Source of the DNA: a phage | Length of the DNA: 59,621 nt | Sequence record: PZ049713.1 | Reading direction: 5' to 3' (one strand) | Shown: piece by piece, positions 4,477 to 46,258 of the stretch | How positions within the stretch are numbered: position 1 is the stretch's first letter | Layout of the letters: every line of letters starts with the position of its first letter | Notes under the pieces: generated by a model | Told to the model about the DNA's origin: nothing | The model's database searches: none | What the model saw: the letters and a program-made list of their open reading frames with translations, nothing else | Program-made: the position numbers and the translations under genes

Positions 4477-7467
4477 TCCACTGCCTCCAATGCCTTAGCC
4501 GGGTAAATCTGCACGCTGTTGCGATGGGCGCTGCTCTCGACTGCGTAGCCCTCTGGTGTCAGTTCCGTGGAGTAGGTGCCGCAGATATGGCCTTCCCACT
4601 CGCTGCCGGTGGACTTCTTCACGAGGTCGCCCATGCGGAACTTGCCTTGCGGGGCGGTCTGCGCGGAGCGGGTGAGTGACGCCGCGATGCGTTCGTGCTG
4701 GGCGACGGTCATATACTCCCCGTCGTCATCATCGGTCATATACGCCTCAACCTCAGAGGCGCGCCCGCAATGCGGCACGCTGGTCATCGGGCTGAACCGC
4801 TCCACCGCCTCCCGCTCATCCTGCGCCGGGCTGGCTCGTCGCCCTCCAGCTCTGCCGCTAGCTCGGGATTGCACACTGAGCAACCATCGCCAACCGTGCG
4901 CTCTCGCATCGTGCAGCGGCATTCCGACTCGGCCTGCTGGGATAGGGCGTCCTGATCCGTCCAGCCAGCGTGATCATGGAAAGGTGCAGGCCGCAGCCAT
5001 CGCCGTAGTGTTCGGCTTGGCAATCGACCACCTGCTGCGACGACCCGCGCATCGCTTCGTTCTCCGCCTTCGCAGCCCCCAGCTCAGCGCCGATTCGCCC
5101 GGCTACCTTCAGTGTGTCGTTCATTGCTCAATCTCCTTGATTGTGGCCAGCGGCAGCCCGCTCATTGCCAGCGGCTCGTCGTAGCAGACGCCCATCATCT
5201 CGGGCCATTTACGCGGCTCGCCCGGGTTTGATGGCGCCCTGGTATATGCCGGTCCCATGCCAGCCGATGCCGGATGACCTCGATACAAGTCCCACGCAAT
5301 GCCATCCTCGCGGCGCTTCGTGGCCTCCGGCATCAGTGTGCAGCCAGGCGCTGGATCTCGTGCCGCGTGGCGTGGACCTGCTCCCAGTCGCGCCGGTCGT
5401 AGAACCCGGCAGCCGCTCAATGGCGTGATCTGATCTGGCCGATCTTGATGCGTGCCAGTAGCTCACAGGCCTCTTGCAGCTCGGCGGCCTGGCGCTCGAG
5501 TTACGTGTGATGGTGTAGGTGCGCATTGGCGCCTCCTCGGCGGCTCCGGTGGGCGGCAGCGGAAACAGGGCGCATGGCCGATCCGCTTCCGTCTGTGCGG
5601 CAGAAGATTGGTGCGTTCACAGCGGCAGCGACCTGCACCGCAAGGCATTCGGCCTCGCCGTGGGGTGATGCAAGCCGATTCACTCGATCGCGCCACTCGT
5701 CCATCGACTCCCTGTGTCAGGGTGGCGGCCCGGCTTGTGGCATTCGGGCTGGAGAGGGCAGGCGCTGCAGCTGCTGCGGGACTTGAAGTTGTAGTGCTGG
5801 CGGCAGAGGGCCTTGGCGGTGTCGGATAGCTGGGTCACGGAGCAGATCCTTCGTAGCGGCTCACGCGGCGCAATGCGCGGCTCGACGTCGATGAACCGGA
5901 GCCTCGGAAGTCGCCATCGGTAGCGCGGCGACTGTCCACCTCAAGGCGCGCCGTGGCGTTAACCTCGGCCGCGACCTCGGCTACAGCCTTCGCTTGTCTC
6001 AATCGAGTAGGCTGCCGGCCAGCACGCCCTCCATCGTCTTGCCGAGGCATGGCGCGCAGATCACTGAGGTTGTTCATGGTGCTCTCCAGTTTGTCGAGCT
6101 TCCGCTCGAACCAGCCGAGCGTTATGGCTGCCTGGCGACCCTCGGGCGGATAGCGTTCGATTGAGTTGCGGCGCATGTCTTGTGCGGGTGACTAGCTCGA
6201 GGTTGTCGATTCCAGATGTTGGCGGGGTTGCGATCCTTGAAGACGAGGAAGTGCCCAGCCGGCACTGGGCCGCTGTGCCTTCCCACAACATCACGTGGAC
6301 CGGGCGCCAGTCAGTGCGCTTGTTGCCGGTGTCCGCCACCTTGCGGTAGAGGATGCCGCCCTTGTCGGTGCGCTCCGCTCCGATGGGGCGCCAGGTGTTC
6401 GATGGTCGGTGACCCAGCTTGAACTGCGTGTCCTTGGCCCGGCCTCCTGCCTGCCATCCTTTGCGGCCAGAGTTCCATGTCTGGTGGCCAGGCTTGAACC
6501 TGCCGCAGCCTGTGATTTCCTTGAACTCATCCGGTCGCGTTAGCTCCGAGTTTCGACACGCGATCGTGAATCGAGCCAGTGCCGCGCCCCATCAAGGCTG
6601 CTATCTCGGTGATGGGGCTTGGTGGCATAACAGTTCTGCCAGTGTTGCTGTCCTCTGCCGGCGTCCAGTGCCGGTATTCCGTGCGCCTCCTGCCGGCCAG
6701 TGGGCTCATTTCTTCCGTCTCCCGTGCGTTGTGGCTGTCCAGCCCGGCGCTGGCTACTTGGTTGCCGTGGTCAGCTATCAGGCTGTCGATCAGGGCGCCC
6801 ATGTAGGCGACTAGGCCAGTGACTGTTTCACCACGGGCCATCGCGCTGTGGGTGTGCTTCTCGCCGTTGGGCAGCACGAACCACGCGCTGGCGTTCCAGC
6901 TCGGAAGGGCGCCGAGGCTCAGTGCCGCGAACTACTGGCCGCGACACTCGGTTGTCGATTGAATAGAGCGTCACGATGCAGCTCATGGCTGGCACACCTC
7001 CAGCAGTGCCGCGTCGCTCAGATCACCAAGCGGCGCAGCGATGTATTGAGCAAGCGCGTAGACGCCCCACGGCTTGCCAGCGATTTCCGCCCGGTACGCC
7101 GCGTGACGGATGGCGTCGAGCACGTCGGGGAATCTCATGGCCACTCCTGCCGCAGCACGTCGTTCTGCTTGGCCTGCGGAGTGCCGCGCTTGCGCAGAGG
7201 GAGGCTGTTCGATACGGCAGAGTTGCGGGCGCCACGCTTGCGGCTGCGCTGGTCCGCCTCCGCGTTTCCGGCGTTGTTGAAGACGGCAGGCTTGATCTCT
7301 ATCGGCTTGCCGATGCTGTCGGGCAGCAGCTGGATCTTTCCGCCAGCGCTCAGGAATGCAGCCGGGCCGCGTCATCTGCGCGCGCGGAGCCTCGCCCTGC
7401 GCGACGGCATGGTTGTCGATGAGCGTGGGTGCGTACCGGGGAGGGGGCGGTGGCGCCGGGTGGATCA

Positions 7468-12282: not shown

Positions 12283-12630
12283 ATGGGCGCAGAGAAACTA
12301 GAGAATCTGCCGGAGTGGTTCCCCGACAAGGTGACTGAGCAGCAGATGGCCATGATACTTGGCACAACCGATCGAGCCCTAGAAGGCAGGCGAAGCCGGA
12401 ACCAGATTCCCGAGGGCGTCTGGAATCGCATCAATGGACGAATCTACTACAGCCGATCAAGGTACGAAGAATGGCAAGAAAGCCTATGGCACTGCCCACC
12501 GGAGTTGAGCTACGCAACGATACGATCCGCATCCGATTTAGCTGGAACGGAAAGCGATGCTCAGAAACCCTCGCCCTCCCCCCGACGCAAGCGGGCATTG
12601 CCGCTGCATCCCGTCTACGCGATCAAGTAG
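12283..12630 (+). CDS. xis: Excisionase-like DNA-binding protein (3' end uncertain, overlaps int)
   Basis: N-terminal ~65 aa (...VTEQQMAMILGTTDRALEGRRSRNQIPEGVWNRINGRIYYSRSRYEEW) resembles excisionase-family HTH proteins; immediately upstream of int. Confidence 0.5.
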   Translation: MGAEKLENLPEWFPDKVTEQQMAMILGTTDRALEGRRSRNQIPEGVWNRINGRIYYSRSRYEEWQESLWHCPPELSYATIRSASDLAGTESDAQKPSPSPRRKRALPLHPVYAIK

Positions 12631-13652
12631 TCCAGCAGATCAAGCACGGCATCTTCGACGAGCGTAAGTATGCCGAGCTCTTCCCGGGCTCGCCGAACGC
12701 CATATCGAGCGTTTCGCGCGGGTTCGGCCAGTACGCCCAGGTCTGGCTCGACAGCCGATCGATCTCGGAAGGCACGCGCGACAACTACAAGTCAGTGCTC
12801 AATGTCTGGTGGATGCCGTACCTGGCCACAACTCTCCTTCCCAACCTGACGACCGCCTTCATGCGCGAGCTAGTCGTTCAAATCCCATGGACCTCGGACG
12901 GCGTGAAGGCGAACGCCATGAACAAGCTGAGCACCATTCTCGAGTCGGCGGTTTCGGACAGGCTCCTGACGGAGAACCCAATTCAGGCGCTGGACATACC
13001 GACGCGGACGGAAGCGAAGGTCGACCCGTTCACGCAGGATGAGGCGGACAGGATCATTGCCAGGCTCTACGAAACGGAGCACTGGCCCAGCCAGATATAC
13101 GCTGCGTTCTTCGAGTTCGCTTTCTATACCGGCATGCGGTTAGGAGAGATCGCTGCCCTTCGCTGGGAAGAGGTCGATTTGAAGAGGCGTACGGTCCACG
13201 TCTGCAGGTCCGTAGCAAAGAAGAAGGTCGTCGAGCGGACGAAGACCAAGAAGGAAAGGTTTGTGCTGCTGAATGATCGGGCAGTGCATGCCCTTCTGTT
13301 CGCCAAGCAGTACGCCGAGCGGCGCGCGGCCGGCAGCGGGCGGCTGACAGATTTTCCGTTCTGCTTCCCGCCAAGCAAAAACTCTCAGTTCGTGCAGCAG
13401 ACAAGCGACCTGCATCACCAGTGGCGACCGACGCTAAAGGCGCTGGGTATTCGCTACCGGCCCCCGTACAATGCGCGCCACACCTACGCAACCATGTGCC
13501 TGATGGCCGGAATGACACCGGCATTCATCGCCAAGCAGCTCGGCCATTCGATACAGATTCTGCTGTCTCGGTATGCCCGCTGGATCGACGGCGAAGGCGA
13601 TTGGGCTGAGATGCGCAAATTGCAGTTTGCCCCAAAAGTGCCCCAAGCGTAG
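12471..13652 (+). CDS. int: Tyrosine-type phage integrase
   Basis: 393 aa; C-terminal catalytic region with ...ARHTYATMCLMAG...LGHSIQILLSRYARW... (R, H-x-x-R, Y). Confidence 0.9.
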   Translation: MARKPMALPTGVELRNDTIRIRFSWNGKRCSETLALPPTQAGIAAASRLRDQVVQQIKHGIFDERKYAELFPGSPNAISSVSRGFGQYAQVWLDSRSISEGTRDNYKSVLNVWWMPYLATTLLPNLTTAFMRELVVQIPWTSDGVKANAMNKLSTILESAVSDRLLTENPIQALDIPTRTEAKVDPFTQDEADRIIARLYETEHWPSQIYAAFFEFAFYTGMRLGEIAALRWEEVDLKRRTVHVCRSVAKKKVVERTKTKKERFVLLNDRAVHALLFAKQYAERRAAGSGRLTDFPFCFPPSKNSQFVQQTSDLHHQWRPTLKALGIRYRPPYNARHTYATMCLMAGMTPAFIAKQLGHSIQILLSRYARWIDGEGDWAEMRKLQFAPKVPQA

Positions 13653-28979: not shown

Positions 28980-29954
28980 TTAGGCCTTGGAAACCAGGCT
29001 GGCGATGCGGATCTGCTTGCGGTCGTAGACGCGGTTCCAGTTCGCAGCGGCAGCCAGCTCGGTGTTGGACGGCGCAGCGCCTGCAACCGAAGCGCCCAGC
29101 CAGCGGATGCCGCGCGGATGCATCAGGAAGTGGCGGCGAGTGATCAGGTACTCGATACCAGCCAGCGAGTCGCGGTCGGTTTCGGTGGGGACCTTTGGAG
29201 CGCCCTCGCCGTAACCGATGGCGCCATCACCGAACAGGTAGCTGGTGAACACGCGATCAGCGCCGGAGCCGCTTACCGGCATACCGTCATCGACCAGCAC
29301 GCGCTTGCCCATGTAGACGGCAATGGTCGGCTTGCCTTCGGAGTCAGGCAGGAAGTCGATCAGGTTCTGTTTGCGCATGGCGTTGTAGATGACGCTGTGC
29401 ACAGCCACGCCAGCAACCTGGCCGATGGCATCGCCAAAGGTCGCCTCGGCATCCAGATAAGCCTCTGCGCTGAACTTGGCGCCGTCGCCGACGACTGCAG
29501 ACACGTCGTGCACCATGTCGCTTGCATCGTTGGCCACGTTGTCAGCGAACACGCCACGCAGCGAGGAGATCAGGGTCTTCTGCTGCTGGCGAGCCCAGTA
29601 GCCGGCGACCAGATCAGCTACGCCGCGCATCGGGTCGTCACCAGCCAGAGCAGCAGCCAGGTCGTTGACGGCCCATGCCTTACCACGCAGATGCAGGACA
29701 GCAACGTCCTGGCCGGCAGTGATAGCCTCAGGGGTAAGCGGCGCGGAATCGTCCAGCACCTCATCAGCGCCGGTCAGGTCGTTCCAGAACGGCATGTTGA
29801 GGGTGTTGCCGCCAGTCGATGCCAGGCGGTCAAGCTCCGCATCGTTGGACACGATGCCGCCCATGCGGAGCAGGGTCAGTTCTCGGGTCAGGTTCCAGAC
29901 ATAGGGGTTGAATACCTCGGGAACGATTACGTCCGAGATTTTGGTGTCAGCCAT
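28980..29954 (-). CDS. Major capsid protein
   Basis: 324 aa; follows scaffold gene; order terminase-portal-scaffold-capsid. Confidence 0.7.
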   Translation of the reverse strand: MADTKISDVIVPEVFNPYVWNLTRELTLLRMGGIVSNDAELDRLASTGGNTLNMPFWNDLTGADEVLDDSAPLTPEAITAGQDVAVLHLRGKAWAVNDLAAALAGDDPMRGVADLVAGYWARQQQKTLISSLRGVFADNVANDASDMVHDVSAVVGDGAKFSAEAYLDAEATFGDAIGQVAGVAVHSVIYNAMRKQNLIDFLPDSEGKPTIAVYMGKRVLVDDGMPVSGSGADRVFTSYLFGDGAIGYGEGAPKVPTETDRDSLAGIEYLITRRHFLMHPRGIRWLGASVAGAAPSNTELAAAANWNRVYDRKQIRIASLVSKA

Positions 29955-30052: not shown

Positions 30053-30826
30053 CTAGGCCGCTGCCTCGGACTTGAGGCGCGCGGCCAGTTGCGGGTTCTC
30101 ACGCTGAATGCGGGCCTGTTCGGTCAGATTCAGCGAGTCTTTCTTGAATGGGTTGCTTGCGATTTGGGCGCCTTGCTTGCCGCCCTGCGAGCCAACACCT
30201 TTGGCGGTAGGCAGGAGATAGCCGTGTTCTTGGCGAACGATGCGGTCGATCCACTCTTTTTGCGTGATCGGGCCTTTTTCGCCGGTCACGATTTGGCCGT
30301 CTGCGTCGCGCATGATCGGCTGCCCGTCTTCGACCTTGAACGCCTGGCGCGCGAGCATCGTGATGATCTTCAGTTTGCCTTCGCCCTCGATGCCGAACTC
30401 ACTGGCGGCTTGAATGGCGGCGTTGTCGATCATGATCTCGGCCAGCTTGGCGTCACGCTCAGACAGCGCTGCTTCCAGCTCAGCAACGCGCTTTGAGCTG
30501 CTTTCGAGAGCCGCTTTATGCTGCGCGCTCACCTTCTCAATCTTGCGGTCGATGACCTCTTGGGTTTTGCCCTCGGCGATCAGCTTGGCCTCCTCGTCAT
30601 TTTCGAAGCGGCTCATGATGGCCCGCACCTGGGCGGGGTCGATACCGTCGAACTCTTTGAGCTTGTCGGCCTGCTGCTGGCGAGCTTTGCGCTCTTCCTT
30701 CAGTTCGTCGAGGATCTGCTGCTTGTTGGTTTCAAGGCCGGCACGGTCTTGCTTGATCGCGTTGAGCAGCTGGCTGCGCTGGGCTTCATCGGTCACCGAT
30801 TGAGCCAACAGTTCTTCCAAGGTCAT
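30053..30826 (-). CDS. Capsid scaffolding protein
   Basis: 257 aa; acidic, Ala/Glu/Lys-rich coiled coil; directly upstream of capsid gene. Confidence 0.6.
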   Translation of the reverse strand: MTLEELLAQSVTDEAQRSQLLNAIKQDRAGLETNKQQILDELKEERKARQQQADKLKEFDGIDPAQVRAIMSRFENDEEAKLIAEGKTQEVIDRKIEKVSAQHKAALESSSKRVAELEAALSERDAKLAEIMIDNAAIQAASEFGIEGEGKLKIITMLARQAFKVEDGQPIMRDADGQIVTGEKGPITQKEWIDRIVRQEHGYLLPTAKGVGSQGGKQGAQIASNPFKKDSLNLTEQARIQRENPQLAARLKSEAAA

Positions 30827-30867: not shown

Positions 30868-30898
30868 CAAACGAAAAAGCCCCGCACGATGGCGAGGC
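30868..30898 (-). terminator. Intrinsic terminator (minus strand)
   Basis: Minus-strand RNA GCCUCGC-caucgu-GCGGGGC then UUUUUCGUUUG; motif shared with 38515 and 38760. Confidence 0.55.
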
Positions 30899-30951
30899 TC
30901 TAGAAATGGAAAACCCGGCGCGGGCCGGGTCTGGTGTCCTGTTCTGGCGGT

Positions 30952-31203
30952 TTAGGCCAAAACCACGTGCTGCCCCTTCATCAGGCAGAAGGCGCACAGA
31001 AGCTGCTTTGTGCCGCCCTGTGGCTTGCCATTCTTTACGATCATGCCGGTCTTTACCTCGACGACGCTCGAGCTGCCGCACCTATGGCAGTTGAGCAGGT
31101 ATGCAGTATCGGGCCTCGCCTTCTTTAGCTTTTCAGCCTTGATGCGCGGCGTTTCGTCTGTAGCGGTGCCGTCGATGACGGTGAGGCGTGGTTTGTTGGT
31201 CAT
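30952..31203 (-). CDS. Zinc-ribbon small protein
   Basis: 83 aa; CHRCGSS...CAFC cysteine pairs; start overlaps GIY-YIG stop. Confidence 0.45.
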   Translation of the reverse strand: MTNKPRLTVIDGTATDETPRIKAEKLKKARPDTAYLLNCHRCGSSSVVEVKTGMIVKNGKPQGGTKQLLCAFCLMKGQHVVLA

Positions 31204-32184
31204 TCAGCCATCATAGGCCGGCATGGCTATCGGCGCCAAGATGGGCAGGTGCCTCCACGACTTCCCGATGACGATGCCGCGAATGACGGACCTATGCTTC
31301 CCGTAGTCGCGCGCAATCTGAACCAAGGGCTCACCCCTCTGCGCTCTCCGCCTGATGTCCATGATCTCAGCTTCTGTGAAGGCCGCGTTGTAGACCTTTT
31401 CGCCACGGTGGTTTATTGGCGGGGTATCGCCTAGCGGGAGGTGCCTCCATGTTTCGCCGCTAATAATCTTGCTTACAGCACTCCTGCTCACCCCGTACAT
31501 CTCGGCAATCTTTGCAGCGCTATTGCCGGCCGCCCGCAGACGCCTTATCTCCAGAACCTTTTGATCATTCAGCTTGGCCGATGAGATGTGCTCGCCCTGC
31601 GCGGTCCCCTCTGTCCGCCTTTGCTCCCAGTTGGCACGGCCAGCTATGGAGCTTATAGCTGACCTCTTGGCGTCGGATATCGCCATGCGCCCTCGGCGCG
31701 CCCTTTCGCTGCGCACCGCCGGGCCTACCATCATGCGGGCTTCGTGCTGCGCGTCAGTCCATGGAACATCTTTCTTCACAGCAGACATGCGAGCGCGGTA
31801 CTCATCGCAGCTCCACAGCCTCTGCACTGCCGACCTTATTCGGTCTCTGAGCTCTGGCGGAGCATCCAGCATCCCTTCGCCGCCCGCTGTGTGATTGACC
31901 AGATTGGCGCCGCCGGCCTTGAGCTTTGCTATCCAGTAGCGCTCAGATTCGTTCCATGTGGCGTCTCGCTGCAAGACTCTCACGCAGGCCTCATCGCCCC
32001 GCGCTATAACTGACCGGACCCAGTAGTCGCGGTGGGTTGGCCTGCTGGTTGACCCTGAGCGGGTTACGTGCTGGCGCAGCCGTCGCTCCACGGAGACCAC
32101 GGTCTGCCCGACATAGCGCATCAGTCCGTCAGATTTTGCATATAGCGCGTATACCGTGCACGTGCGAGAATTGGCGTCAGCCAT
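31204..32184 (-). CDS. GIY-YIG homing endonuclease with tandem C-terminal HTH repeats
   Basis: 326 aa; N-terminal VYALYAKSDGLMRYVGQT...RLRQH; two repeats of ...(I/V)A(E/R)xYG(V/K)xRS(A/V)(V/I)...(E/K)(T/S)WRHLP. Confidence 0.75.
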   Translation of the reverse strand: MADANSRTCTVYALYAKSDGLMRYVGQTVVSVERRLRQHVTRSGSTSRPTHRDYWVRSVIARGDEACVRVLQRDATWNESERYWIAKLKAGGANLVNHTAGGEGMLDAPPELRDRIRSAVQRLWSCDEYRARMSAVKKDVPWTDAQHEARMMVGPAVRSERARRGRMAISDAKRSAISSIAGRANWEQRRTEGTAQGEHISSAKLNDQKVLEIRRLRAAGNSAAKIAEMYGVSRSAVSKIISGETWRHLPLGDTPPINHRGEKVYNAAFTEAEIMDIRRRAQRGEPLVQIARDYGKHRSVIRGIVIGKSWRHLPILAPIAMPAYDG

Positions 32185-32263
32185 GGCCGTGACTCCTTAA
32201 CAGTCAGGTTGTGGTTAGAGCCCGCACGGTGTTGGTAGCACCTGCGGGCTCGCTTATTCTAGC

Positions 32264-33349
32264 TTAAAGCCCAGCCTTCTTGAACGCTTCGGCGTCCTTC
32301 CTGCGCAATTCCTCAATCGTATATTCCCTACCCTTTGAGTCCACGAACCTGTCAAGGGTTAGGCCGCCATCACGGAACAGCTTTCCCTTAGTCGGGCCTA
32401 GGATGTCATCCTGAAACGCAGCCGGCTTCGACTTTAGCCAAGACTGGTAAGTCGTTGATCCAGCGACCTGGCCATCCATAGACGCCCTGTCAGCTTCGGC
32501 TATCTCGGTCTCGCTCAACCCGAGCGCCTCCCAGGCTGACTTCAAAACCGGCGCAGTCGACGAGCGGCAGCCCCAATGAGCAGGAGGTCGCGGACCCTTG
32601 TCTATCGGGAACACCTGACCGTCTCTGGCCTGACAGACGCTGGATGTCCTGCCGTCGAGTGTGCTGACCCATTGAACCTCTTTCACGATGTCGGCATTTG
32701 CCTCGAACACCGCCTGCCTGGCGTAGTTAGCCGTGTGGTTGACCGCGGTGCGCACCAATGCCTCGGCGCCTCGCCGGTCGATCTCCATCAGCCCATCGGC
32801 ATACCCTAGCGCGCGAGTGCCGCGCAGCCGGCGAACCATCTGGCTAATCGTCTCGCCTTCCACGAACCCCATGCGGATTGCATCGCGGATGCGTATCGCC
32901 TTCGCGGTCTCGATGTCCTTCAGCGCCTCCTTCAGCAGCTTGCCCTGGAATGGCCTAGCCATCGCCGCGGCATAGACCTGATTGGCCGAAACCGTGTTCA
33001 GGACCAGGGCGTCAGCCACTTGTGCAGGCAGAACGCTCTGTAGGACTCGATGCTGATAGCTCGCCTCATATCCAGCAAGCTCCAGCAGCGCCCCATCCAG
33101 CTCCTCTCCAGCGGCGCGGTAAGCCTCAGCGTTAAGGCCCCGCACCTGCACTAGCATCTGATCGAGACGCTGAACCGTGAACGACTCTGGTGGCAGACGC
33201 TCAAGCGCTTCGGTCAGCCTGGCGAACAGATCATCATCCACCCGGTTGAGCAGCTGCATGAAGCGCCGCACGACGCCGCCGCCGTAACGCTGCAGGTAAA
33301 TCTGATGAGAGATGGCAAGGTCAGCCAGCTTTTCGTTGGCAGTGGGCAT
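32264..33349 (-). CDS. Head morphogenesis protein (Mu F / SPP1 gp7-like)
   Basis: 361 aa; immediately downstream of portal. Confidence 0.55.
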   Translation of the reverse strand: MPTANEKLADLAISHQIYLQRYGGGVVRRFMQLLNRVDDDLFARLTEALERLPPESFTVQRLDQMLVQVRGLNAEAYRAAGEELDGALLELAGYEASYQHRVLQSVLPAQVADALVLNTVSANQVYAAAMARPFQGKLLKEALKDIETAKAIRIRDAIRMGFVEGETISQMVRRLRGTRALGYADGLMEIDRRGAEALVRTAVNHTANYARQAVFEANADIVKEVQWVSTLDGRTSSVCQARDGQVFPIDKGPRPPAHWGCRSSTAPVLKSAWEALGLSETEIAEADRASMDGQVAGSTTYQSWLKSKPAAFQDDILGPTKGKLFRDGGLTLDRFVDSKGREYTIEELRRKDAEAFKKAGL

Positions 33350-34692
33350 TACATACCTCCAAGGCCCGGCCCCTGCTCCTGAATCAGCTCAAGCTCAGCC
33401 AGCCAGTCGCGCTCAGGCAGCTTCCCGGTCGAGATGTAGCGCCAGAACGAGTCATGGCTAACGATGCCGGCCTGCGCCGCGGTGAGCAGCTGAGCCGCAA
33501 TCTGAGGATCAACGCCGGCGGAGGAAAAGTCAGGCTTAACAGCGAATCGCAGGTCACCGCTGGTAGCGACGATCTCAGCCGCATAGCGCAGGCACTGCTC
33601 GATAGCCTCTGCAACGGTGATAACAATCGTGTAGAGCGTGCTGTGCTGATCGCTTTGACGCGCCAGTCGCGCCTCGCCGGACTCGGTGCCACCGAGATCC
33701 ACGACGCGCGCCCCAGCCTCAAGCGCTGCATTGCGCTGCTGCTCCATCAGGCGCTCATTGATCGCGCTGCCAGCCCCGCTCGGCTCCAGATAGAACGCAT
33801 TTCCGCCAGTAGGCAGGCACCACGCAGCGGACGGCCCAGTGACGCGCAGGTCTTGATCATCATCCAGTCCAACCACAACAGGCTGCGCATGACAGGTAGC
33901 GTGCGCATTGCTGAACAGGTCGGCGCTGAGCTGGTAGCTCTTGAGCGCGGCCTTGGCCATGGTCAGCAGCGGGATCTCGTCAACGTCAGCGGCATTGTCG
34001 GTCGAACCGGCAATCACCATCGGGATGTAGCGGATAGCGCCGGCTACGCCACGAGCTGACTGCGGCTCCTCAATGGCAGCCCCCTTGTCGTCGAAAAGCT
34101 GCGAGGCATACGCCCCATCTTCCAGGCTCAGCACGCGGTAAACCGTGTCGACTTCATGGGCGAACCGATCATCACCCTTGCGGCGATCTTCCTGCAGGAC
34201 GACCAATGCCAAGTCCTGCCGGCCGCGCTGGTCGCTGAGCCCCCAATTGATGAGACTGAGCGCTGGATATAGCGTGATGTACGGGGCGCCGTCTGAGTCG
34301 ACGTCCACGAGCAGGCCAGCCCGTCCGAACAGAATCACATCGCGACAGGCGCGCATGAAGAGCTGACGCAGGCCGAAACCATCAGCGGTCGCGTCATCTT
34401 CCATCCGAGCGATACCAGCCGGCAGCGTGATCTCAGGCTGCAGGCGGGACACCATGCCGATCATGCTACGCAGCGCGTCCTTTACCCAATGCGGGTATTG
34501 GGCACGGAGCGTGTAGGCTTCGTACAGGTATGAGTTGGTCGGGTCGTCCTTCTCAGCTTCGACCATGCCGGCCGGCTTCGGCAGATTCGCCGGGTTCGCC
34601 TTTACGGCAGACTCGCCTTTTACCGCTTCGGCCATTATCAGCCAGTCGGCCAGGTGTGCCGTGTAGTCTGGATGACGGCTTGATACGGGCAT
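33349..34692 (-). CDS. Portal protein
   Basis: ~447 aa from ATG at 34692..34690, which overlaps the TerL stop (TAATG); ORF-track start 34860 is an upstream in-frame extension. Confidence 0.65.
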   Translation of the reverse strand: MPVSSRHPDYTAHLADWLIMAEAVKGESAVKANPANLPKPAGMVEAEKDDPTNSYLYEAYTLRAQYPHWVKDALRSMIGMVSRLQPEITLPAGIARMEDDATADGFGLRQLFMRACRDVILFGRAGLLVDVDSDGAPYITLYPALSLINWGLSDQRGRQDLALVVLQEDRRKGDDRFAHEVDTVYRVLSLEDGAYASQLFDDKGAAIEEPQSARGVAGAIRYIPMVIAGSTDNAADVDEIPLLTMAKAALKSYQLSADLFSNAHATCHAQPVVVGLDDDQDLRVTGPSAAWCLPTGGNAFYLEPSGAGSAINERLMEQQRNAALEAGARVVDLGGTESGEARLARQSDQHSTLYTIVITVAEAIEQCLRYAAEIVATSGDLRFAVKPDFSSAGVDPQIAAQLLTAAQAGIVSHDSFWRYISTGKLPERDWLAELELIQEQGPGLGGM

Positions 34693-35978
34693 TATGTGAG
34701 TCCTCGGATGCGGCGGGTGCCCGCTGCGCGCTTGATGATCGGGAAGCGGTGAACGACGAAGTAGCCGAAGGCATCGGCCGGGTCTTCCGTGCCGTCCTTG
34801 TTGGGCTCTCCGTGTTCGTTGTATGCCTGCTGCTCGAGCACCTGGGTGGTGACCGGGCATTTGTCGGTATTGACCTTCAGCCGGCGCACGCCCTCGCCAT
34901 TGAGGAACATGGCGTTAACGGCCAGAACGCGGTCACGAACCATTGGGTTAGCCGGGTTGACGCGAACCGTGAAGCCGGCCTGCTTGAGCAGGCTGTGATC
35001 CGACTCGCTGCCGTTGACGCTCTTGCGGTTCTTGCCGCTGGCGTCGGGGTAGACGGTGATCTTGTGGCCGGGGAATCGCTCCAGTAGCGCAGCGATCATT
35101 GCAGGCGTGTCGAACAGGCTGGTCAACTCATCCAGTTGCCGCGGCTCACCATCACGAATGACGAACACGCAGGCCGCCATCCGATTGATGTTGAAGTCCA
35201 TACCTACATGCAGCTCTTCACCCGGGCGAATCGTCTCGTCGGTGTGATTCAGGCGCCGGCAGAAGTTCGGATAGACCGATCCGCTCACTAGGTTGACGAA
35301 CTGGCCGTCAATGTAGGCGTCGACCAGGTTGGCCGGGTACGACTCGCGCAGCGAAGGGATGTAGTCCTTCGGCAGGTTCTTGGCGTTCTGCCGCGTGCTG
35401 GCATGGACGATGCCATACAGCGGGCGCTGGCTCGGATTGGCGGCCAGCTCCTTGACGAACTTGCGATATACCCAGTTGAACCCCTCCGGCGTGGTCGTCA
35501 CGTCGATGGTGTTCTCTCCGCGCGTCGGCCAGACAGTCGACATACGGGCGATGATCTTTTTCCAGGCGCTGTCAGCCTTCTTGATCGGCATGCAGTCGAT
35601 CTCGTCGACCAAGGCGTGCGCAATGTTGAAGCCGACGATGCGGCCAGGGTGCTCCATGCTCTTGCAGACGATCGTCGACAGGCAGCGGCCTTTCGAGTCG
35701 CGCAGATGCACCCGCTTGTTGCTCGGCACGATGTCAGCGAACAGCCCGAAGGCCTCGGCAACGCCCGGTATCGTGTCGTAGAAGATGTCCGCGATCTGCG
35801 GATAGGTAGGCGCGAAGTAGCCCTGCGGAATGCCGGGGTGCTCCAGCGCGTTGATACACAGCCGCACGCAGCCTACGAACGTCTTGCCGCTTCGATACCC
35901 GCCGACGAACGCTGAGAACTTCTTCGGGTGGCTGATAAACTCGAACTGCGGCTTATTCAGCTTCAGGGTCGCTTGCAT
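34692..35978 (-). CDS. Terminase large subunit
   Basis: 428 aa; Walker A VGGYRSGKT near N-terminus; followed by portal. Confidence 0.85.
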   Translation of the reverse strand: MQATLKLNKPQFEFISHPKKFSAFVGGYRSGKTFVGCVRLCINALEHPGIPQGYFAPTYPQIADIFYDTIPGVAEAFGLFADIVPSNKRVHLRDSKGRCLSTIVCKSMEHPGRIVGFNIAHALVDEIDCMPIKKADSAWKKIIARMSTVWPTRGENTIDVTTTPEGFNWVYRKFVKELAANPSQRPLYGIVHASTRQNAKNLPKDYIPSLRESYPANLVDAYIDGQFVNLVSGSVYPNFCRRLNHTDETIRPGEELHVGMDFNINRMAACVFVIRDGEPRQLDELTSLFDTPAMIAALLERFPGHKITVYPDASGKNRKSVNGSESDHSLLKQAGFTVRVNPANPMVRDRVLAVNAMFLNGEGVRRLKVNTDKCPVTTQVLEQQAYNEHGEPNKDGTEDPADAFGYFVVHRFPIIKRAAGTRRIRGLT

Positions 35979-36470: not shown

Positions 36471-37205
36471 TCACATTAGAAGCGTGAACTGCCCATCCCA
36501 CGAATCGGACTTCTTTAGGTTCAGCTTGGCCCACATGGGGCGCAGGTTGTTTAGGCTGTTTGCAGCTTTTAGCTGCACGGGGTCAGTCAGATCAAAGGAT
36601 GACAGCGGTCTAATGTGGTCGATATGCCACTTATCCCTGTTGTGCCAGCCCATTCCACTATGGAATAGCGCTTCAAGGTGCTGGGCAAGGTCAGAGGCTG
36701 AATAGCCTAGGCATTCGGCAGTAACGTCTTCTTTCGCCTTCCCAACAAGCTCCAAGCAGCGCCTTATCATGCATCTTGATGCCTCTGCCGCCATCCCTTG
36801 CGGCGTCGATCTTCGACGCTTGCCTCTAATTGAGATTGACACTCTGCCCTTTTCAGACTTGGCATACTCAGCCTTGCGCTGGCGATACTCTTTAGTTTTG
36901 CGTTTGGCGCGAATCTTCTCTTGGAATTCAGGAGAGTAGTATTTCCTCCTAAGGCGCTCTTTTGCTTGTGGCGTAGCGTTTCTGGACTTCGCCCTTGCGC
37001 TACGCTTCGCCCGGTACTCCTCAGACTCTTCGCGTCTTGCTGCTCGCTCTCTCTCGCACTCTAGACAGTGCCCGGTTGCAGAAGACCTTTCCGAGTAATG
37101 CTCTCTGCGGCACGGGATGCCCGTAAAGTATTTGCTGAGCCCGACCTCTTTCGCTACTGAGCGCGAGACAATATGAATGCACGCGGATAGACTTGCGTCA
37201 GTCAT
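36471..37205 (-). CDS. HNH endonuclease, terminase-associated, with N-terminal zinc module
   Basis: 244 aa; C-terminal ...WHIDHIRP...NLRPMWAKLN...; N-terminal KYFTGIPC...GHCLEC module. Confidence 0.7.
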   Translation of the reverse strand: MTDASLSACIHIVSRSVAKEVGLSKYFTGIPCRREHYSERSSATGHCLECERERAARREESEEYRAKRSARAKSRNATPQAKERLRRKYYSPEFQEKIRAKRKTKEYRQRKAEYAKSEKGRVSISIRGKRRRSTPQGMAAEASRCMIRRCLELVGKAKEDVTAECLGYSASDLAQHLEALFHSGMGWHNRDKWHIDHIRPLSSFDLTDPVQLKAANSLNNLRPMWAKLNLKKSDSWDGQFTLLM

Positions 37206-37238
37206 TGCCGTGATCCTCGACCGATCAGGTGGTGGCTA

Positions 37239-37271
37239 GAAGCCCGGAAGTGTTAGCGCACTCCGGGCTTC
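37239..37271. other. Perfect 10-bp stem / 13-nt loop hairpin upstream of HNH-terminase genes (cos/pac candidate)
   Basis: GAAGCCCGGA-agtgttagcgcac-TCCGGGCTTC; no U-tract on either strand. Confidence 0.35.
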
Positions 37272-37294
37272 GTCATTATAGCGCTTCGCTTAAT

Positions 37295-39035: not shown

Positions 39036-39581
39036 TTATGCCGCTTGCTCAGCAATCAACCCCTCATTACCGAGGATCTCCTGCGCCTCAACCAGCGCTT
39101 GATCCACTTGGCGCTCCAGGTCACGGCGAATGTCCCGGCGCCACCGCTCCAGTGTCTTTTGCGGGCGGCCGTCTTCGTCCCAGCGGTCAAGCTCATACCA
39201 TGCGGCCGGCAATACGCTCGTGCTTCGCTTCCCTTCCGCGCCGGGCAGCTTCGGGAATGCCCAGGTGGCTACGGCGCACTGGATGAACCGGCCAGGTGCT
39301 GGCGACTTCACCGATCCGGCCAGCGCCATCATCGCATCGTGCTTGCGCTCCAGATGGGTGCTGTACTTGGCGACGAGCGCCAGCCACAGACCAACCGGCA
39401 GCGCCTTGTGCAGGCGACCATGGACCCAGCAGTCGGTTAAGAATGCCTCTTCCTTGCCGCAGATCGCCCCAGGCACTCGCTGGTCTTGCACCTTGGGGTC
39501 AAAGTCCACGCCGCCAGCGCTATTGATCGTCTCCGCAGCCAGAGCCCGGACTACTGCTGATACAACTGATGGGTAGGTCAT
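39036..39581 (-). CDS. Putative late-gene regulator (Q-like antiterminator candidate)
   Basis: 181 aa; positional only, last gene before the terminator-containing late leader; no motif recognised. Confidence 0.25.
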   Translation of the reverse strand: MTYPSVVSAVVRALAAETINSAGGVDFDPKVQDQRVPGAICGKEEAFLTDCWVHGRLHKALPVGLWLALVAKYSTHLERKHDAMMALAGSVKSPAPGRFIQCAVATWAFPKLPGAEGKRSTSVLPAAWYELDRWDEDGRPQKTLERWRRDIRRDLERQVDQALVEAQEILGNEGLIAEQAA

Positions 39582-40723
39582 CAGAACAATCTCCCAAGGG
39601 ATGCTGCGAATTCGTAAGGGTCTTTAGCGCTCTTGCGCAGGTTGCAAGGCGGGCACGCGATAACCAGATTGTCGACCACGTGCATTCCACCCTTCGATAG
39701 CGGCTGATAGTGGTCAACGTGATAGTTGTTTTCACACTTTGATTTGCACCAGTGGCAAAACTTTGGAACTGATCGCTCCCAGGCCATAATCACGGACGTA
39801 CTATCGCCACCAGCCTCTAGCTGTCTGCGCCTAGCCTTGTACGCTTTAGATATCGCCTTCCTGATCTCTGGATTCTTCTTTGCCCACTCTTTGGCTTTCT
39901 GCGCCCTTACTTCCCTGTTTTGTTCGTTGCGAATTCTCGCAAGTTGAATGATCCGATCCCTGTTTTCAGCAAGGTATTTCCGGTCGTACTCTTTTTTAAG
40001 TTCAGACCGTGAGAAAATTGCCAAGCACTCGACACATGATCCGGAGGCTGTATATTTCATGCCGCTGTGGCCCTTCGAGCACGGCCGTCCGACATACATT
40101 AAGGCGCCGCTTTCGAGCGCTATCTTTCGTGCGCTCTTGGCTATCCTGCGCTCCTTGCGACGAGCAGCTACCTCCGCCAGCCGAGACGATCGCTCTTCTG
40201 AGATTCGCTTGCGCTCTGCCTTCCCCTTCTCGTACTCCTCCAGCGTCATTCCGAACTTGGCGGCTGCCGATATAGCCTCGCATGTCCGGCAGCGATCAGT
40301 TGATACGTAGCGCTCTGCTGAATGTCCGTTAACGCACGGCAATCCGATGCTGTAGAACATCAGCCCGGCATCCATAGCAGCTTGCCGGAGAGAAGCGCGC
40401 CGTTCCCTCTCAGCTTTCCGCACGGCCAGCCCTGGATCTCGCTTCAGCCGTCGCGACATTTTCTTCTCTGCGCACAAAGGGTCAGAGTCACGCCGCAGCT
40501 TTTGCTCAGCGCGCTCGGCCTCTATGTTCGCGTGATACTTAGCTTTCCTCTTCAGCCTGGCGCACTCACAGCACGCGCCATTGATCGTGGCCCTGCTGGC
40601 GACGTGACCGGCAGGGCAAGGCTTGCCAGTGAAATAGGATTTGCTGCCGGCCTCCTTCGCCTCTTTTCGGCTGCAAGGAAGGTTCAAGTCATCTTGATCT
40701 TTGTTAGAATTCAAATCAGCCAT
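39581..40723 (-). CDS. HNH endonuclease with three N-terminal zinc-module repeats
   Basis: ~380 aa from ATG at 40723; C-terminal HVDHYQPLSKGG...NLVIACPPCNLRKS; three YFTG/YSIG/YVGxPC...GH...CxEC repeats. Confidence 0.65.
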   Translation of the reverse strand: MADLNSNKDQDDLNLPCSRKEAKEAGSKSYFTGKPCPAGHVASRATINGACCECARLKRKAKYHANIEAERAEQKLRRDSDPLCAEKKMSRRLKRDPGLAVRKAERERRASLRQAAMDAGLMFYSIGLPCVNGHSAERYVSTDRCRTCEAISAAAKFGMTLEEYEKGKAERKRISEERSSRLAEVAARRKERRIAKSARKIALESGALMYVGRPCSKGHSGMKYTASGSCVECLAIFSRSELKKEYDRKYLAENRDRIIQLARIRNEQNREVRAQKAKEWAKKNPEIRKAISKAYKARRRQLEAGGDSTSVIMAWERSVPKFCHWCKSKCENNYHVDHYQPLSKGGMHVVDNLVIACPPCNLRKSAKDPYEFAASLGRLF

Positions 40724-40806
40724 TTGTCGCTCCCATATAGCGCTAATGGTTAGGGCCGGCAGTGTGTTCCCGCACTCTGCTGGCCCGTTCAATTCTACCA
40801 AATTAA

Positions 40807-41934
40807 TCAAGCACATAACATTTCCGGCACAACTTCGTTAACTGCTACTCGCCCATATTCCTTGTGGTAGGTAATACCTATTGCGCGGCGGTTAGAGGCA
40901 TAGCCGAGTCTGGCTGCATATGATCCGGTCGCAGTCAGCGTCGGATGCCTGCGAACTATCATTCCGTTATGCGTAGCGACCTCTTCCTTGTGGTAGTGGC
41001 CGGTGTGCGCCTCTCTGTGCTTTGTGCAGCCCCAAATCTCGGGGAAGTTCGCCGCGAAGATGCCCGGCAGGTCCGAATTGCGCGCCTTGTGGCCGTGATG
41101 AAAGCCGAGCATCGTCTTGCCGTGCTGGTAGACGTAATACGGCGTCTCGCTCATGTTCACTTTCAATCTCGGCTCGTTTTCATATAGAGCCTCGAACATA
41201 TGGCGCAACCACAGCGATCCGGCCAAGTCATGGTTGCCCTCTGCAATTACCAGATGGACTTCCTCGTGCTTTGCCAGCGCCATATCAATAATGCTGCGTA
41301 GAACTTTGATACTAACCCGCACCAACTCTGCATATATGCCAGAGACGTTGAGCGGGTGCCGATTGGTTGGCGTTACTGGCTCCAGTCCGTCAAACGTCAG
41401 GAAGTCGCCTAGCTGGTTGATGACGCAATATCTCGCCTTGGCCGATGCGTTGATCATTGCGGCAAAGCAGCCGACAAGCACGCGCTCGGCTTCTTCGAGG
41501 TTCCAGTCGGCGCCACCCTGGATGGCAGTCGCGTATTCCCCGATGTGACAGTCCGTCAGGGTGTACAGGTTGCACAGCGCGTCGTCGGTTTGGGCAGGCC
41601 CGCCCATTGGCGCCAAGCGGTCTATCTGTTCGCCCATTGCTGCGGCTGCGGCGTGCATTAGCTCTAGCTGCCGTTCGTGGTCGATGCTGGACTTGACCCA
41701 CTGCAGCTTCTGCTCGCCGTCCTTGCCGTACAGTGTCGACGTGCCTTTCAGGTGGAAGCCGTCCGGCACGCTCTTGGTCATGTCGTGCTCCGGGCTCCAC
41801 CCCTGACGAGCCAAGCGCGCCTTATGGGTGTAGACGTTGCGCTCGTGCAGCCCAAGGATCTGCGCAGCCTCTGCCACAGTGCGGCCAGTCAGCGCGGCCT
41901 TGATTTCGTCGTCTGTCGCTTTGCGTGCGGCCAT
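40807..41934 (-). CDS. HTH-containing calcineurin-like metallophosphoesterase
   Basis: 375 aa; N-terminal HTH-like stretch; TDCHIG, GDFLTFDG, EGNHD, GFHHGH motifs. Confidence 0.5.
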   Translation of the reverse strand: MAARKATDDEIKAALTGRTVAEAAQILGLHERNVYTHKARLARQGWSPEHDMTKSVPDGFHLKGTSTLYGKDGEQKLQWVKSSIDHERQLELMHAAAAAMGEQIDRLAPMGGPAQTDDALCNLYTLTDCHIGEYATAIQGGADWNLEEAERVLVGCFAAMINASAKARYCVINQLGDFLTFDGLEPVTPTNRHPLNVSGIYAELVRVSIKVLRSIIDMALAKHEEVHLVIAEGNHDLAGSLWLRHMFEALYENEPRLKVNMSETPYYVYQHGKTMLGFHHGHKARNSDLPGIFAANFPEIWGCTKHREAHTGHYHKEEVATHNGMIVRRHPTLTATGSYAARLGYASNRRAIGITYHKEYGRVAVNEVVPEMLCA

Positions 41935-44736: not shown

Positions 44737-44891
44737 TTCCGTGCTCCTACGCCGCGCTGGGTGCTTCCGTCAGCACAGACGACGCGATGGTCATTGCCGC
44801 GTGATAGGCCTATGCCGGTCGCGGTGGTTTTTCGTATCTGGTAGCCCTGGCGCTGCAGGAGCTGGATGGCGTGCTGCTGGATAGGGGTCAT
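44733..44891 (-). CDS. Small protein (52 aa), translationally coupled between dnaB and traR-like gene
   Basis: Not in ORF track; ATGA overlap with dnaB stop and ATGA overlap with the traR-like start; reads MTPIQQHAIQLLQRQGYQIRK... Confidence 0.35.
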   Translation of the reverse strand: MTPIQQHAIQLLQRQGYQIRKTTATGIGLSRGNDHRVVCADGSTQRGVGARK

Positions 44892-46258
44892 GCGAAATCC
44901 CCCGATGCACTGCGACTGCGGAACCGGCCCATCTCAACTTCTTCCTGGCTGATCTCGCGCGCACCCGCGAAGCTCACGAACCGCGCGAACTGGCCTTGCT
45001 GCTGAAGGAGGCACGAGCCAACTTGCGCATGACGGCACTTTGTCATCAGGATTTCGGTGACGCCGTTCTGGCCTTCCTCGGTGTCCATGTCCCGGTGAAC
45101 CATGAGGATGCAGTGGGCGTCTGCCTCGATTTCGCCAGAGTCGCGCAGGTCAGCCGAGACGGGCTTTTTGCCTACGCGTTTGGTCGAATCACGGTTGAGC
45201 TGGGAAAGCAGGATTACGGGAATCCCAAGCTCTTTGGAGAGGTTCAACATCGCTTTGCTGATCTTGCCGACCTCTTCCGAGCGACTGCGCCCCTTCGCGT
45301 CAGCCGGGATCAGGCCGAGGTAATCGACCATCACGATGTCAAGGCCATGGTTGCGCTGAACCTGACGGGCTATCGACCGAATGCGCGCCGGGGTCATTCC
45401 AGGGCGGTCGCAGACGTAAAGTGGCTTGTCGACACACTTGGCTACTGCGGCGGTCATGCCCTGCCAATCGCCGTCCTGCATGTCTACGCCAGAGTCGAGC
45501 CGGCCGATATCAACCGACCCGAGAGATGCAATGACGCGCTGGCCAAGCTCTTCCTCTGGCATTTCCAGACTGAAGACCAGGCCAACACCCGCGCCGATCA
45601 TTGCGATGTTCTGAACGATCTGCAGGCCAAGCGTCGTCTTGCCGCTGCCAGGCAGGCCGGCAATCACGGTGACAGTACGGGGACGTAGGTGTCGGGTCAG
45701 CTTGTCGAGGTCAGGCAAGCCGGTGGAAAGCCCCACGACGCGCTTACCGTTGTGCTTCTCGTCGATCGTGTCGACGTTCTTGCGCACGATTTCGTCGATT
45801 CGCTTGTAGCCTGGCTCTCCGTCTTCCAAGTCGCGCAGGTCGGCCATCGCCTGCTGTGCGCTCGCGATAATGTCTGCAAGCGGCTTTTCCTCGGTCGCCA
45901 TCTCTGTCACGGCATTGGCGGCGTCCACCAGTCGGCGCAGAACGGCACGCTCGCGCACGGCTTTGGCATACGCTTCCCAGTTCGCCGTGCTGTAGGTGGC
46001 CTTTGCGATCTCTCCGGCATAGGCGATAGTCGAGTCGCCAGAAGGCAGCTCAGGGCGGAAGATCCCGACCGTCACAGGGTCGATAGGCTCGCCAGCGGCG
46101 TGGCAGTCGAGAATGGCCTGATACAGCGCGGCGTTTTCGATGTCGTAGAAGTCAGCCGCCACGACCTTGCCGCTGATCGCGTCAAACAGGCTCGGGTCGA
46201 GCATCATCGCGCCAAGCACGCCCCATTCGGCTTCGACGCTGTACAGTTCGCGGCTCAT
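44888..46258 (-). CDS. dnaB: Replicative DNA helicase DnaB
   Basis: 456 aa; Walker A GLPGSGKTT; RecA-like C-terminal domain. Confidence 0.9.
   Translation of the reverse strand: MSRELYSVEAEWGVLGAMMLDPSLFDAISGKVVAADFYDIENAALYQAILDCHAAGEPIDPVTVGIFRPELPSGDSTIAYAGEIAKATYSTANWEAYAKAVRERAVLRRLVDAANAVTEMATEEKPLADIIASAQQAMADLRDLEDGEPGYKRIDEIVRKNVDTIDEKHNGKRVVGLSTGLPDLDKLTRHLRPRTVTVIAGLPGSGKTTLGLQIVQNIAMIGAGVGLVFSLEMPEEELGQRVIASLGSVDIGRLDSGVDMQDGDWQGMTAAVAKCVDKPLYVCDRPGMTPARIRSIARQVQRNHGLDIVMVDYLGLIPADAKGRSRSEEVGKISKAMLNLSKELGIPVILLSQLNRDSTKRVGKKPVSADLRDSGEIEADAHCILMVHRDMDTEEGQNGVTEILMTKCRHAQVGSCLLQQQGQFARFVSFAGAREISQEEVEMGRFRSRSASGDFA

Follow-up and report, generated by a model that had tools for sequence, protein, structure and literature searches.

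A probable GIY-YIG homing endonuclease gene and a predicted SymR-like antisense RNA at the MuF/zinc-ribbon junction of a Pseudomonas-type prophage

How does a gene that the closest relatives of a phage lack come to lie in its head operon, and what controls it there? The question is raised by a 326-aa open reading frame (ORF; 31204-32184, minus strand) in sequence record PZ049713.1, of which the 59,621 nucleotides (nt) analysed here, a Pseudomonas/Stutzerimonas-type prophage in bacterial DNA, are referred to as the window. The ORF stands free between a resident MuF/SPP1 gp7-like head-morphogenesis gene (32264-33349, minus; PF04233, phrog_241, TIGR01641), whose 3' end is the insertion site, and an 83-aa zinc-ribbon gene (30952-31203, minus; CxxC...CxxC). 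An earlier note on this DNA had proposed a selfish insertion comprising both ORFs, flanked by a hairpin upstream and a terminator downstream. In our interpretation, which we hold with good confidence, the 326-aa ORF is an I-TevI-type GIY-YIG homing endonuclease that spreads by intronless homing and carries an antisense control module of its own.

The endonuclease gene and its footprint

A Pfam scan of the 326-aa protein returns a GIY-YIG match that exceeds the cutoff, together with matches to helix-turn-helix (HTH) domains. The GIY-YIG domain occupies residues ~9-100 (nt 32160-31885, minus), and two HTH repeats follow at residues ~197-250 (31596-31435, minus) and ~262-315 (31401-31240, minus). 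In the structure predicted with AlphaFold2 (AF2), the N-terminal domain has a predicted local distance difference test score (pLDDT) of ~90 and adopts the GIY-YIG alpha/beta fold, with I-TevI as the best structural match. Catalytic residues Y12, Y24, G26, R35, H39, E81 and N97 are invariant in nine family members. Their spacings in the window protein are 12, 11, 4, 46 and 16; the counterpart spacings in I-TevI are 11, 10, 4, 48 and 15.

The comparison with insertion-free relatives that the earlier note had called for defines an empty site. A scan of IMG/VR with the MuF protein yielded 65 loci, none of which contains this endonuclease family. In 34 cases, only 7 nt separate the MuF stop codon from the zinc-ribbon ATG, and no endonuclease gene intervenes. 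The same arrangement is found in Pseudomonas phage PS-1, with a gap of 7 nt, and in Caulobacter phage DMCA, with a gap of 9 nt. In these 34 relatives, PS-1 and DMCA, the empty site reads ...GCTGGGCTA TGA TGGCnnn ATG..., and the form ...AAGGCTGGGCTA TGA TGGCnnn ATGAC... is kept even between Pseudomonas and Caulobacter phages. The closest relatives of the window, L003-L006, are all empty; their amino-acid identity to the window is 95% in the zinc-ribbon protein, 96% in the scaffold and 100% in the capsid. Because these relatives lack the gene, it is dispensable to the phage. That is, the insertion is far from universally conserved; its occurrence is sporadic, its site is defined, and close relatives have that site intact and unoccupied.

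In the window, 1060 nt stand in place of the 7-nt spacer. The left junction reads ...GCTGGGCTT TAA GCTAGAAT..., and the right junction reads ...GCCGGCCTATGATGGCTGA ATGACC, where GCCGGCCTATGATGGCTGA (31204-31222, minus) is a degenerate copy of the empty-site GCTGGGCTATGATGGCnnA and the endonuclease ORF ends within it. The endonuclease and zinc-ribbon ORFs abut at this point, TGA followed by ATG, rather than overlapping as first reported. On contig L074, a ~60-nt duplicate of the MuF 3' end (2387-2470; ...LDELRKRDAEYFRKAGI, then a stop) lies past the endonuclease stop codon; the cassette therefore supplies a replacement MuF C-terminus there, the old one being left as a relic. The comparable MuF 3' relic in the window measures only ~19 nt.

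The origin of the inserted DNA can be read from a sliding comparison. At 85-100% nt identity, the window resembles L006 across the portal gene and the 5' two-thirds of MuF, and again from the zinc-ribbon gene on. From ~32660 to ~31215 it is 91-100% nt identical to L068, a contig that carries the 94% homologue of the endonuclease and cannot be aligned with the window elsewhere. At informative sites, the switch from recipient- to donor-type falls within 32668-32660, at about MuF residue 228, and the switch back to recipient-type falls at the endonuclease stop codon. The transferred segment measures ~1.45 kb and consists of ~400 nt of the MuF 3' third (32264-32660, minus; donor-type both by sliding identity and at informative sites, and co-converted with the endonuclease), the 79-nt leader, and the endonuclease ORF. 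A mosaic of this kind is what intronless homing with co-conversion should leave behind. It indicates that an L006-like backbone received the endonuclease gene from an L068-like donor through recombination, and it suggests a break in the 3' third of MuF or at the junction.

The homologues that were traced to contigs share 94% or 47-56% identity with the window protein, and each is separated from the gene before it by 73-131 nt. On contigs that extend far enough to show it (L068-L074, L079), that gene is MuF-like, as judged by Pfam or by portal-gene synteny. The phages that carry these homologues otherwise differ in portals and capsids, and the genes next to the homologues are unrelated small genes, or none. 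The same gene family is thus found at the same target in different backgrounds, with co-conversion of the flank. The claim of a selfish insertion, when confined to the endonuclease gene, is borne out by its sporadic presence, the sharp empty site, the shared site in unrelated backbones and the co-conversion mosaic.

The process could proceed as follows. In a mixed infection, or in an encounter between a prophage and a phage, the HTH repeats would bind the conserved MuF 3' end or junction of an endonuclease-free genome, and the tethered GIY-YIG domain would cut near the bound site. Recombinational repair would then copy the endonuclease gene, along with flanking MuF sequence, from the carrier. 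The carrier genome would be protected from its own endonuclease in two ways: the site is interrupted by the insertion, and the co-converted MuF allele is unlike the sensitive one.

The gene resembles I-TevI and the T4 Seg endonucleases in its GIY-YIG catalytic fold with the same order of catalytic residues, in its modular build of nuclease, linker and HTH DNA-binding modules, and in being free-standing between conserved phage genes, sporadic, and accompanied by co-converted flanking markers. It differs in its DNA-binding part; members of this family have one to three tandem sigma-r4/resolvase-like HTH modules, whereas I-TevI has a zinc finger, a NUMOD3 helix and a single HTH. It also differs in its host, a temperate Pseudomonas-type siphovirus, in its site, the MuF/zinc-ribbon junction, and in that its similarity to characterised enzymes is marginal by sequence. 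Lastly, its control is apparently exerted by an antisense RNA, and we know of no description of antisense-RNA control for enzymes of the I-TevI/Seg type. The endonuclease by itself is an ordinary selfish element, a new member of the GIY-YIG nucleases.

The MuF gene and its junction are a hotspot, in that relatives carry several other selfish elements here. L019 has a 358-aa HNH endonuclease gene (5087-6227) at the identical MuF/zinc-ribbon junction. Its leader is nearly identical to that of the window gene, its first codons read MAEA.. where the window has MADA.., and its C-terminal HTH is 32% identical; i.e., the two genes differ by an apparent swap of nuclease domains behind a constant leader. 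In L043 and in the S. stutzeri KOS6 prophage (L086), the gene after MuF encodes a classical GIY-YIG/NUMOD3 endonuclease, the same one in both, and no zinc-ribbon gene comes after it in either. MuF is intact in L086 (2498-3586); its splitting by a frameshift in L043 (3998-5087) probably reflects misassembly or the decay of that prophage copy. In L035, a 739-aa MuF (3998-6217) contains a Hint intein (C|LPGDSRVL...VTHN|C) at HWNC|RS, at about MuF residue 269, within the tract that is co-converted in the window. PS-1 has an HNH gene just upstream of MuF, and L079 has two tRNA genes (6431-6585; Rfam 56.7 and 50.5 bits) a few hundred bases past its endonuclease homologue. An endonuclease gene beside essential structural genes at a mosaic boundary, and a swap of nuclease domains, as between the HNH of L019 and the GIY-YIG of the window, are likewise features of the system of Barth, Dunham & Seed (2023; PMC10448857); the abstract and outline of that paper describe no shared antisense-RNA leader module.

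The leader and its predicted antisense RNA

The upstream hairpin, which had been placed at 32190-32225, in reality lies at 32218-32251, where its 9-bp stem (GAGCCCGCA/TGCGGGCTC) extends to 13 bp. On the endonuclease gene's own strand, no T-run follows it. The leader in which it stands has a conserved architecture at 12 of 12 distinct occupied sites. The MuF stop codon is followed by a TAnnnT box, a gap of 3-6 nt, a hairpin of ~9-15 bp, the sequence CTAACCA, a small hairpin, and an (A/G)TGGCT start. The stem sequence of the big hairpin varies among loci, and CTAACCA is invariant. In the window, the box is a -10-like TAGAAT (32256-32261, minus), 4 nt before the hairpin, which could be the cassette's own promoter. 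The Shine-Dalgarno sequence (SD) of the endonuclease gene, AAGGAG (32193-32198, minus), is partly paired in the small hairpin, which covaries on the sense strand.

One explanation of this leader involves no antisense RNA. The box, TAnAAT, would be a promoter, the big hairpin would stabilise the RNA at its 5' terminus or weakly attenuate read-through from MuF, and the small hairpin would mask part of the SD. In keeping with this, TAnnnT is invariant at 3-6 nt before the hairpin across the 12 divergent leaders, the small covarying hairpin takes in part of the SD, and RNA hairpins that mask the ribosome-binding site (RBS) are an established control of T4-type homing endonuclease genes. We nevertheless consider a purely sense-strand function unlikely, on the following structural evidence. 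The antisense strand folds more stably than the sense strand in 12 of 12 leaders, the summed energies being -458 and -350 kcal/mol, respectively. All 12 antisense folds start with an AGCCA...UGGUU helix, one pair of which is an invariant G.U, and which encloses a stem with an anti-SD loop; the big hairpin and a U-rich tail follow. Covariation was analysed in a MAFFT alignment of the antisense strand of the 12 leaders, with shuffled and slid controls. The consensus has 21 pairs, with 92.9% of cells paired and compensatory changes in 11 pairs; none of 500 shuffles reached the observed pairing values, and the slid controls gave ~40%. The antisense structure includes 29 G.U cells, namely the invariant pair and 28 others, which pair on the antisense strand only, their sense-strand counterparts being A.C mismatches. 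The alifold consensus energy is -23.6 kcal/mol for the antisense strand and far weaker, -10.2 kcal/mol, for its reverse complement; RNAalifold applied to a MAFFT alignment of the sense strand also gives a weak consensus (-6.75 kcal/mol), with stems misaligned.

R1, a covariance model made from the 12 endonuclease-gene leaders only, scores the window leader at 83.3 bits. The predicted product is a SymR-like cis-antisense RNA (32179-32263, plus) directed against the endonuclease start codon, SD and leader. Its first stem-loop, SL1 (32179-32216, plus), is closed by AGCCA/UGGUU and has an anti-SD loop to which the endonuclease SD is fully complementary. The second, SL2 (32218-32251, plus), is the hairpin described above, here as a predicted terminator stem-loop, and the U-rich tail (32252-32263, plus) is formed by the complement of the TAGAAT box. 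A predicted extended -10 element (TGcGAGAAT; 32163-32171, plus) can be read inside codons 5-8 of the endonuclease gene; 7 nt separate it from the predicted RNA 5' end downstream. Thus, a structure of two stem-loops with an anti-SD loop and with covariation lies opposite the 5' end of the target gene; its promoter, predicted from sequence, falls within the target ORF, and the RNA would begin only a few nt inside that ORF. The hairpin is indeed part of the insert; its role as a boundary marker is not upheld, and it is most likely the terminator stem-loop of the cis-antisense RNA.

Several observations weigh against this assignment. The Rfam scan produced two full-length matches on opposite strands of the same leader stretch, both below threshold: an R1162-like plasmid antisense RNA at 35 bits, with a gathering score of 55, and SymR (RF01809) at 35.9 bits, with a gathering score of 61. 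The leader is therefore not filed as a member of RF01809 as now defined. The antisense -10 of this copy is GAGAAT, with G at position 1, and has no good -35; the terminator tail is moderately U-rich. In addition, the sense TAGAAT box and the 5' hairpin could explain part of the conservation in the absence of an antisense RNA. Because of the moderately U-rich tail and the weaker GAGAAT, even with its extended TG, antisense expression is less certain for this copy than for the family as a whole.

If the antisense RNA is made, a cis-acting transcript of ~75 nt would start from the -10 box in endonuclease codons 5-8, span the anti-start codon and the anti-SD in the SL1 loop, and end at SL2 and the U-rich tail. 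By analogy with SymR/symE and with the IncQ counter-transcribed RNA (ctRNA) and repA, it would pair with the endonuclease mRNA leader at the RBS and start codon. Translation of the nuclease would thereby be kept off or low, e.g., in the lysogen, until sense transcription, which the late operon or the TAGAAT box of the cassette itself could supply, outruns the antisense pool.

Recurrence of the module and its relation to SymR and IncQ

The window contains two further copies of the module. One (40718-40799, plus; R1 55.9 bits) faces the start of a 380-aa HNH gene (39581-40723, minus; HNH domain by Pfam and PHROGs) and has TAGAAT boxes on both strands. The mechanically called ORF of this gene (39581-40816) runs through the leader, and the module puts the true start at 40723. 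The other (37200-37282, plus; R1 43.8 bits) faces a 244-aa endonuclease VII-like gene (36471-37205, minus; phrog_1035 endonuclease VII, E 2.6e-20) upstream of the small terminase gene. R1 also finds copies before the HNH genes of PS-1 and L015 and before the GIY-YIG gene of L086. None of these copies had gone into the model. Two ORFs of the window, along with several metagenomic proteins, have been given a spurious N-terminus that extends through the leader.

In IMG/VR, a plain-sequence pattern from which the big hairpin was excluded selects at least 120 loci. R1 was run on the first 80 of these and recognises the full module at 55. Among 46 distinct downstream proteins, at least 19, i.e., about 40% or more, are of the HNH, endonuclease VII or GIY-YIG kind. 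Their Pfam matches are HNH_3 (15), AP2 (5), HNH/HNH_5 (2), NUMOD3 (2) and Rha (2), and one each for Endonuclease VII, GIY-YIG, zf-His-Me, Integrase and SymE toxin; the association of the module with free-standing nuclease genes is therefore strong. Of 63 copies, 80% carry a -10-like hexamer (second base A, sixth base T) at a distance of 6-7 nt before the predicted RNA 5' end; its frequency at other offsets is ~5%. The commonest hexamer is TAGAAT, as in E. coli symR, and many copies have TTG ~17 nt further upstream. An antisense -10, often with a -35, that keeps its position within unrelated coding sequences is a further argument against a leader that functions on the sense strand only.

With a score of 45.4 bits, R1 also finds E. 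coli SymR, which has been characterised experimentally, exactly opposite the symE start. A model trained on endonuclease leaders thus detects a proven antisense RNA, which again speaks for the antisense strand. SymR represses translation of symE, and its promoter is located inside the symE ORF (Kawano 2007; PMC1891008). The two promoters of symE/symR are convergent (PMC1891008), so that the sense and antisense readings of the leader are compatible with one another. The predicted RNA shares with SymR a length of ~77 nt, a position opposite the 5' end of the target gene, a promoter within the first target codons (at a distance of 7 nt in both cases, as TAGAAT in E. coli and as GAGAAT here), and a 5' stem-loop closed by AGYCA/UGRYU, with an anti-SD loop, ahead of a terminator stem-loop. 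On one phage contig, moreover, the module fronts a SymE-toxin homologue. Unlike SymR, the predicted RNA faces a homing endonuclease gene rather than that of the SymE toxin, and it has no evident LexA control.

On an IncQ1 plasmid found by BLAST, R1 gives a 40-bit match at the repA start, on the antisense strand. The 75-nt ctRNA of IncQ R1162/RSF1010 (RF00043) has the same order of leader hairpin, CUAACCAC, SD hairpin and AUGGCU, with ~27 of 41 bases identical in the single-stranded part. The IncQ target differs, being a plasmid replication helicase, and BLAST does not connect the sequences. A BLAST search of the leader against plasmids and phages gave no significant match, and none of 20 module-bearing phage loci reached any Rfam gathering score.

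On the IMG/VR contig L126 (7496-7899), the module scores 52 bits before a 109-aa ORF that begins MADAHSTAGT... and is probably the SymE_toxin match among the downstream proteins. Its first codons resemble those of the window endonuclease (MADANS) as well as the N-terminus of E. coli SymE (MTDTHS). This start fits the first ~6 codons belonging to the RNA module.

The module thus appears to be a new variant of SymR/IncQ-type regulation placed before nuclease genes of several families; a literature search found no paper that links SymR-like RNAs to homing endonucleases. It may further be that SymR-type control is a portable, horizontally exchanged cassette mounted on unrelated dangerous genes, with E. 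coli symER as one domesticated case, a proposal to which we give even odds. The cassette would span the sense -10, the terminator hairpin, CUAACCA, the SD hairpin, AUGGCU, and the antisense promoter, to about codon 7. Its targets would be homing endonucleases of the HNH, GIY-YIG and endonuclease VII types in many phages, the SymE toxin, and the IncQ RepA helicase.

State of the endonuclease gene, resident neighbours and biological meaning

The reading of the gene as a functional homing endonuclease has evidence to answer. Between the window endonuclease and its 94% relative, the ratio of nonsynonymous to synonymous substitution rates (dN/dS) is 0.62, and 0.85 in the nuclease domain; the adjacent co-converted MuF tract of the same pair has a dN/dS of 0.08. 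The gene may therefore be under relaxed selection or decaying, with its catalytic residues all intact; a value of 0.62 is typical of weakly constrained selfish genes and calls for caution as to activity. A family-profile sequence search of the PDB returned HTH matches only and did not reach I-TevI, so the fold assignment rests on the predicted structure. The protein scores 23 bits with TIGR01453, whose cutoff is 56 bits. The cut position, finally, is constrained solely by the asymmetric co-conversion tract.

From the dN/dS values, one might see in the gene a decaying or domesticated remnant, e.g., an HTH regulator or a recruited nuclease that is no longer active in homing, with the mosaic due to ordinary phage recombination. 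The rarity of the family could be added in support: it has 15 matches among 5.8 billion proteins, close relatives were not found in viral contigs, and the family profile matched none of 185,579 species genomes and one metagenomic locus. We regard this as improbable. Every family member has a full-length ORF with all catalytic residues intact, the recombination tract starts and stops at the gene and its target gene, and the closest relatives do without the gene. The gene is moreover 90-100% nt identical in two otherwise unrelated phages, which points to a recent transfer.

A mobile cassette of two genes, suggested by the abutting ORFs and the two flanking hairpin elements, is refuted by the comparative data and has next to no probability left, since in endonuclease-free genomes the zinc-ribbon gene directly follows MuF, the zinc-ribbon DNA of the window is recipient-type rather than donor-type, the terminators are near-identical at empty sites, and endonuclease homologues stand beside unrelated small genes or none. 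The zinc-ribbon gene, by its position after MuF in endonuclease-free genomes, is therefore a resident neighbour and not a partner, and synteny and the recombination mosaic rule it out as part of the cassette. The protein matches phrog_15916 over its full length (E 3.5e-20), and its position directly downstream of a MuF-like gene is conserved; the pLDDT of its AF2 model, 60.6, is too low for a fold search.

Two tandem terminator-like hairpins with T-runs (30874-30930, minus) follow the zinc-ribbon gene. They are conserved nearly base for base in empty-site genomes, including PS-1, and are therefore resident; as an edge of the cassette, the role the earlier note had given to the downstream terminator, they are ruled out. 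The ~65-nt noncoding element that the two hairpins form, also found in L001, L003-L007, L010, L015, L019 and L068, is kept nearly verbatim even where the flanking proteins are only ~50% identical and the downstream scaffold/capsid modules are of other types. It sits at a mosaic boundary, and the L019 copy scores 35.6 bits with Rfam isrJ (threshold 37). A simple terminator scan of the region shows no enrichment (5 sites, with 6.3 expected); the upstream hairpin and the terminators are nonetheless real features because they are conserved in relatives. A sigma-70 promoter match in the endonuclease 3' end (31239-31210) was disregarded, as 1 was found and 2.1 were expected.

The head-region genes are all on the minus strand, in the order terminase, portal, MuF, 326-aa ORF, 83-aa ORF, scaffold and capsid. 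The large terminase is at 34692-35978, the portal at 33349-34860, the scaffold at 30053-30826 and the major capsid at 28980-29954. The portal ORF, taken at its longest, begins with an Arg/Pro-rich stretch and shares 169 nt with the terminase ORF; the true start is probably further downstream, near MPVSSRHPDY. Relatives of the MuF protein are known from Stutzerimonas stutzeri and Pseudomonas prophages and from Pseudomonas phages. Integrase genes and a DnaB gene (44888-46258) mark the window as a prophage in bacterial DNA. At the left of the window, two tyrosine-integrase genes (1413-2405 and 12471-13652) are ~10 kb apart, which suggests two adjacent integrated elements, or a prophage beside another island.

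The window offers an unusually clean natural case of intronless homing, in which the sequence itself reveals donor, recipient, breakpoints and empty site. Of the two parts of the insert, the leader is more valuable than the endonuclease. Homing endonucleases need to be expressed enough to spread without harming their carrier, and the known controls are promoters, RBS-masking hairpins and autorepression. If the proposed module is real, cis-antisense RNA would be an additional and general control across several nuclease families, and it would unite SymR/symE, the IncQ copy-control RNA and phage homing endonuclease genes, which have so far been handled separately. With the module, free-standing homing endonuclease cassettes would have a defined 5' end, annotators would have a marker both for such cassettes and for their true start codons, and nuclease domains would be swappable behind a constant leader, as between L019 and the window. 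E. coli symER, in turn, would stem from a module that is mainly phage-borne.

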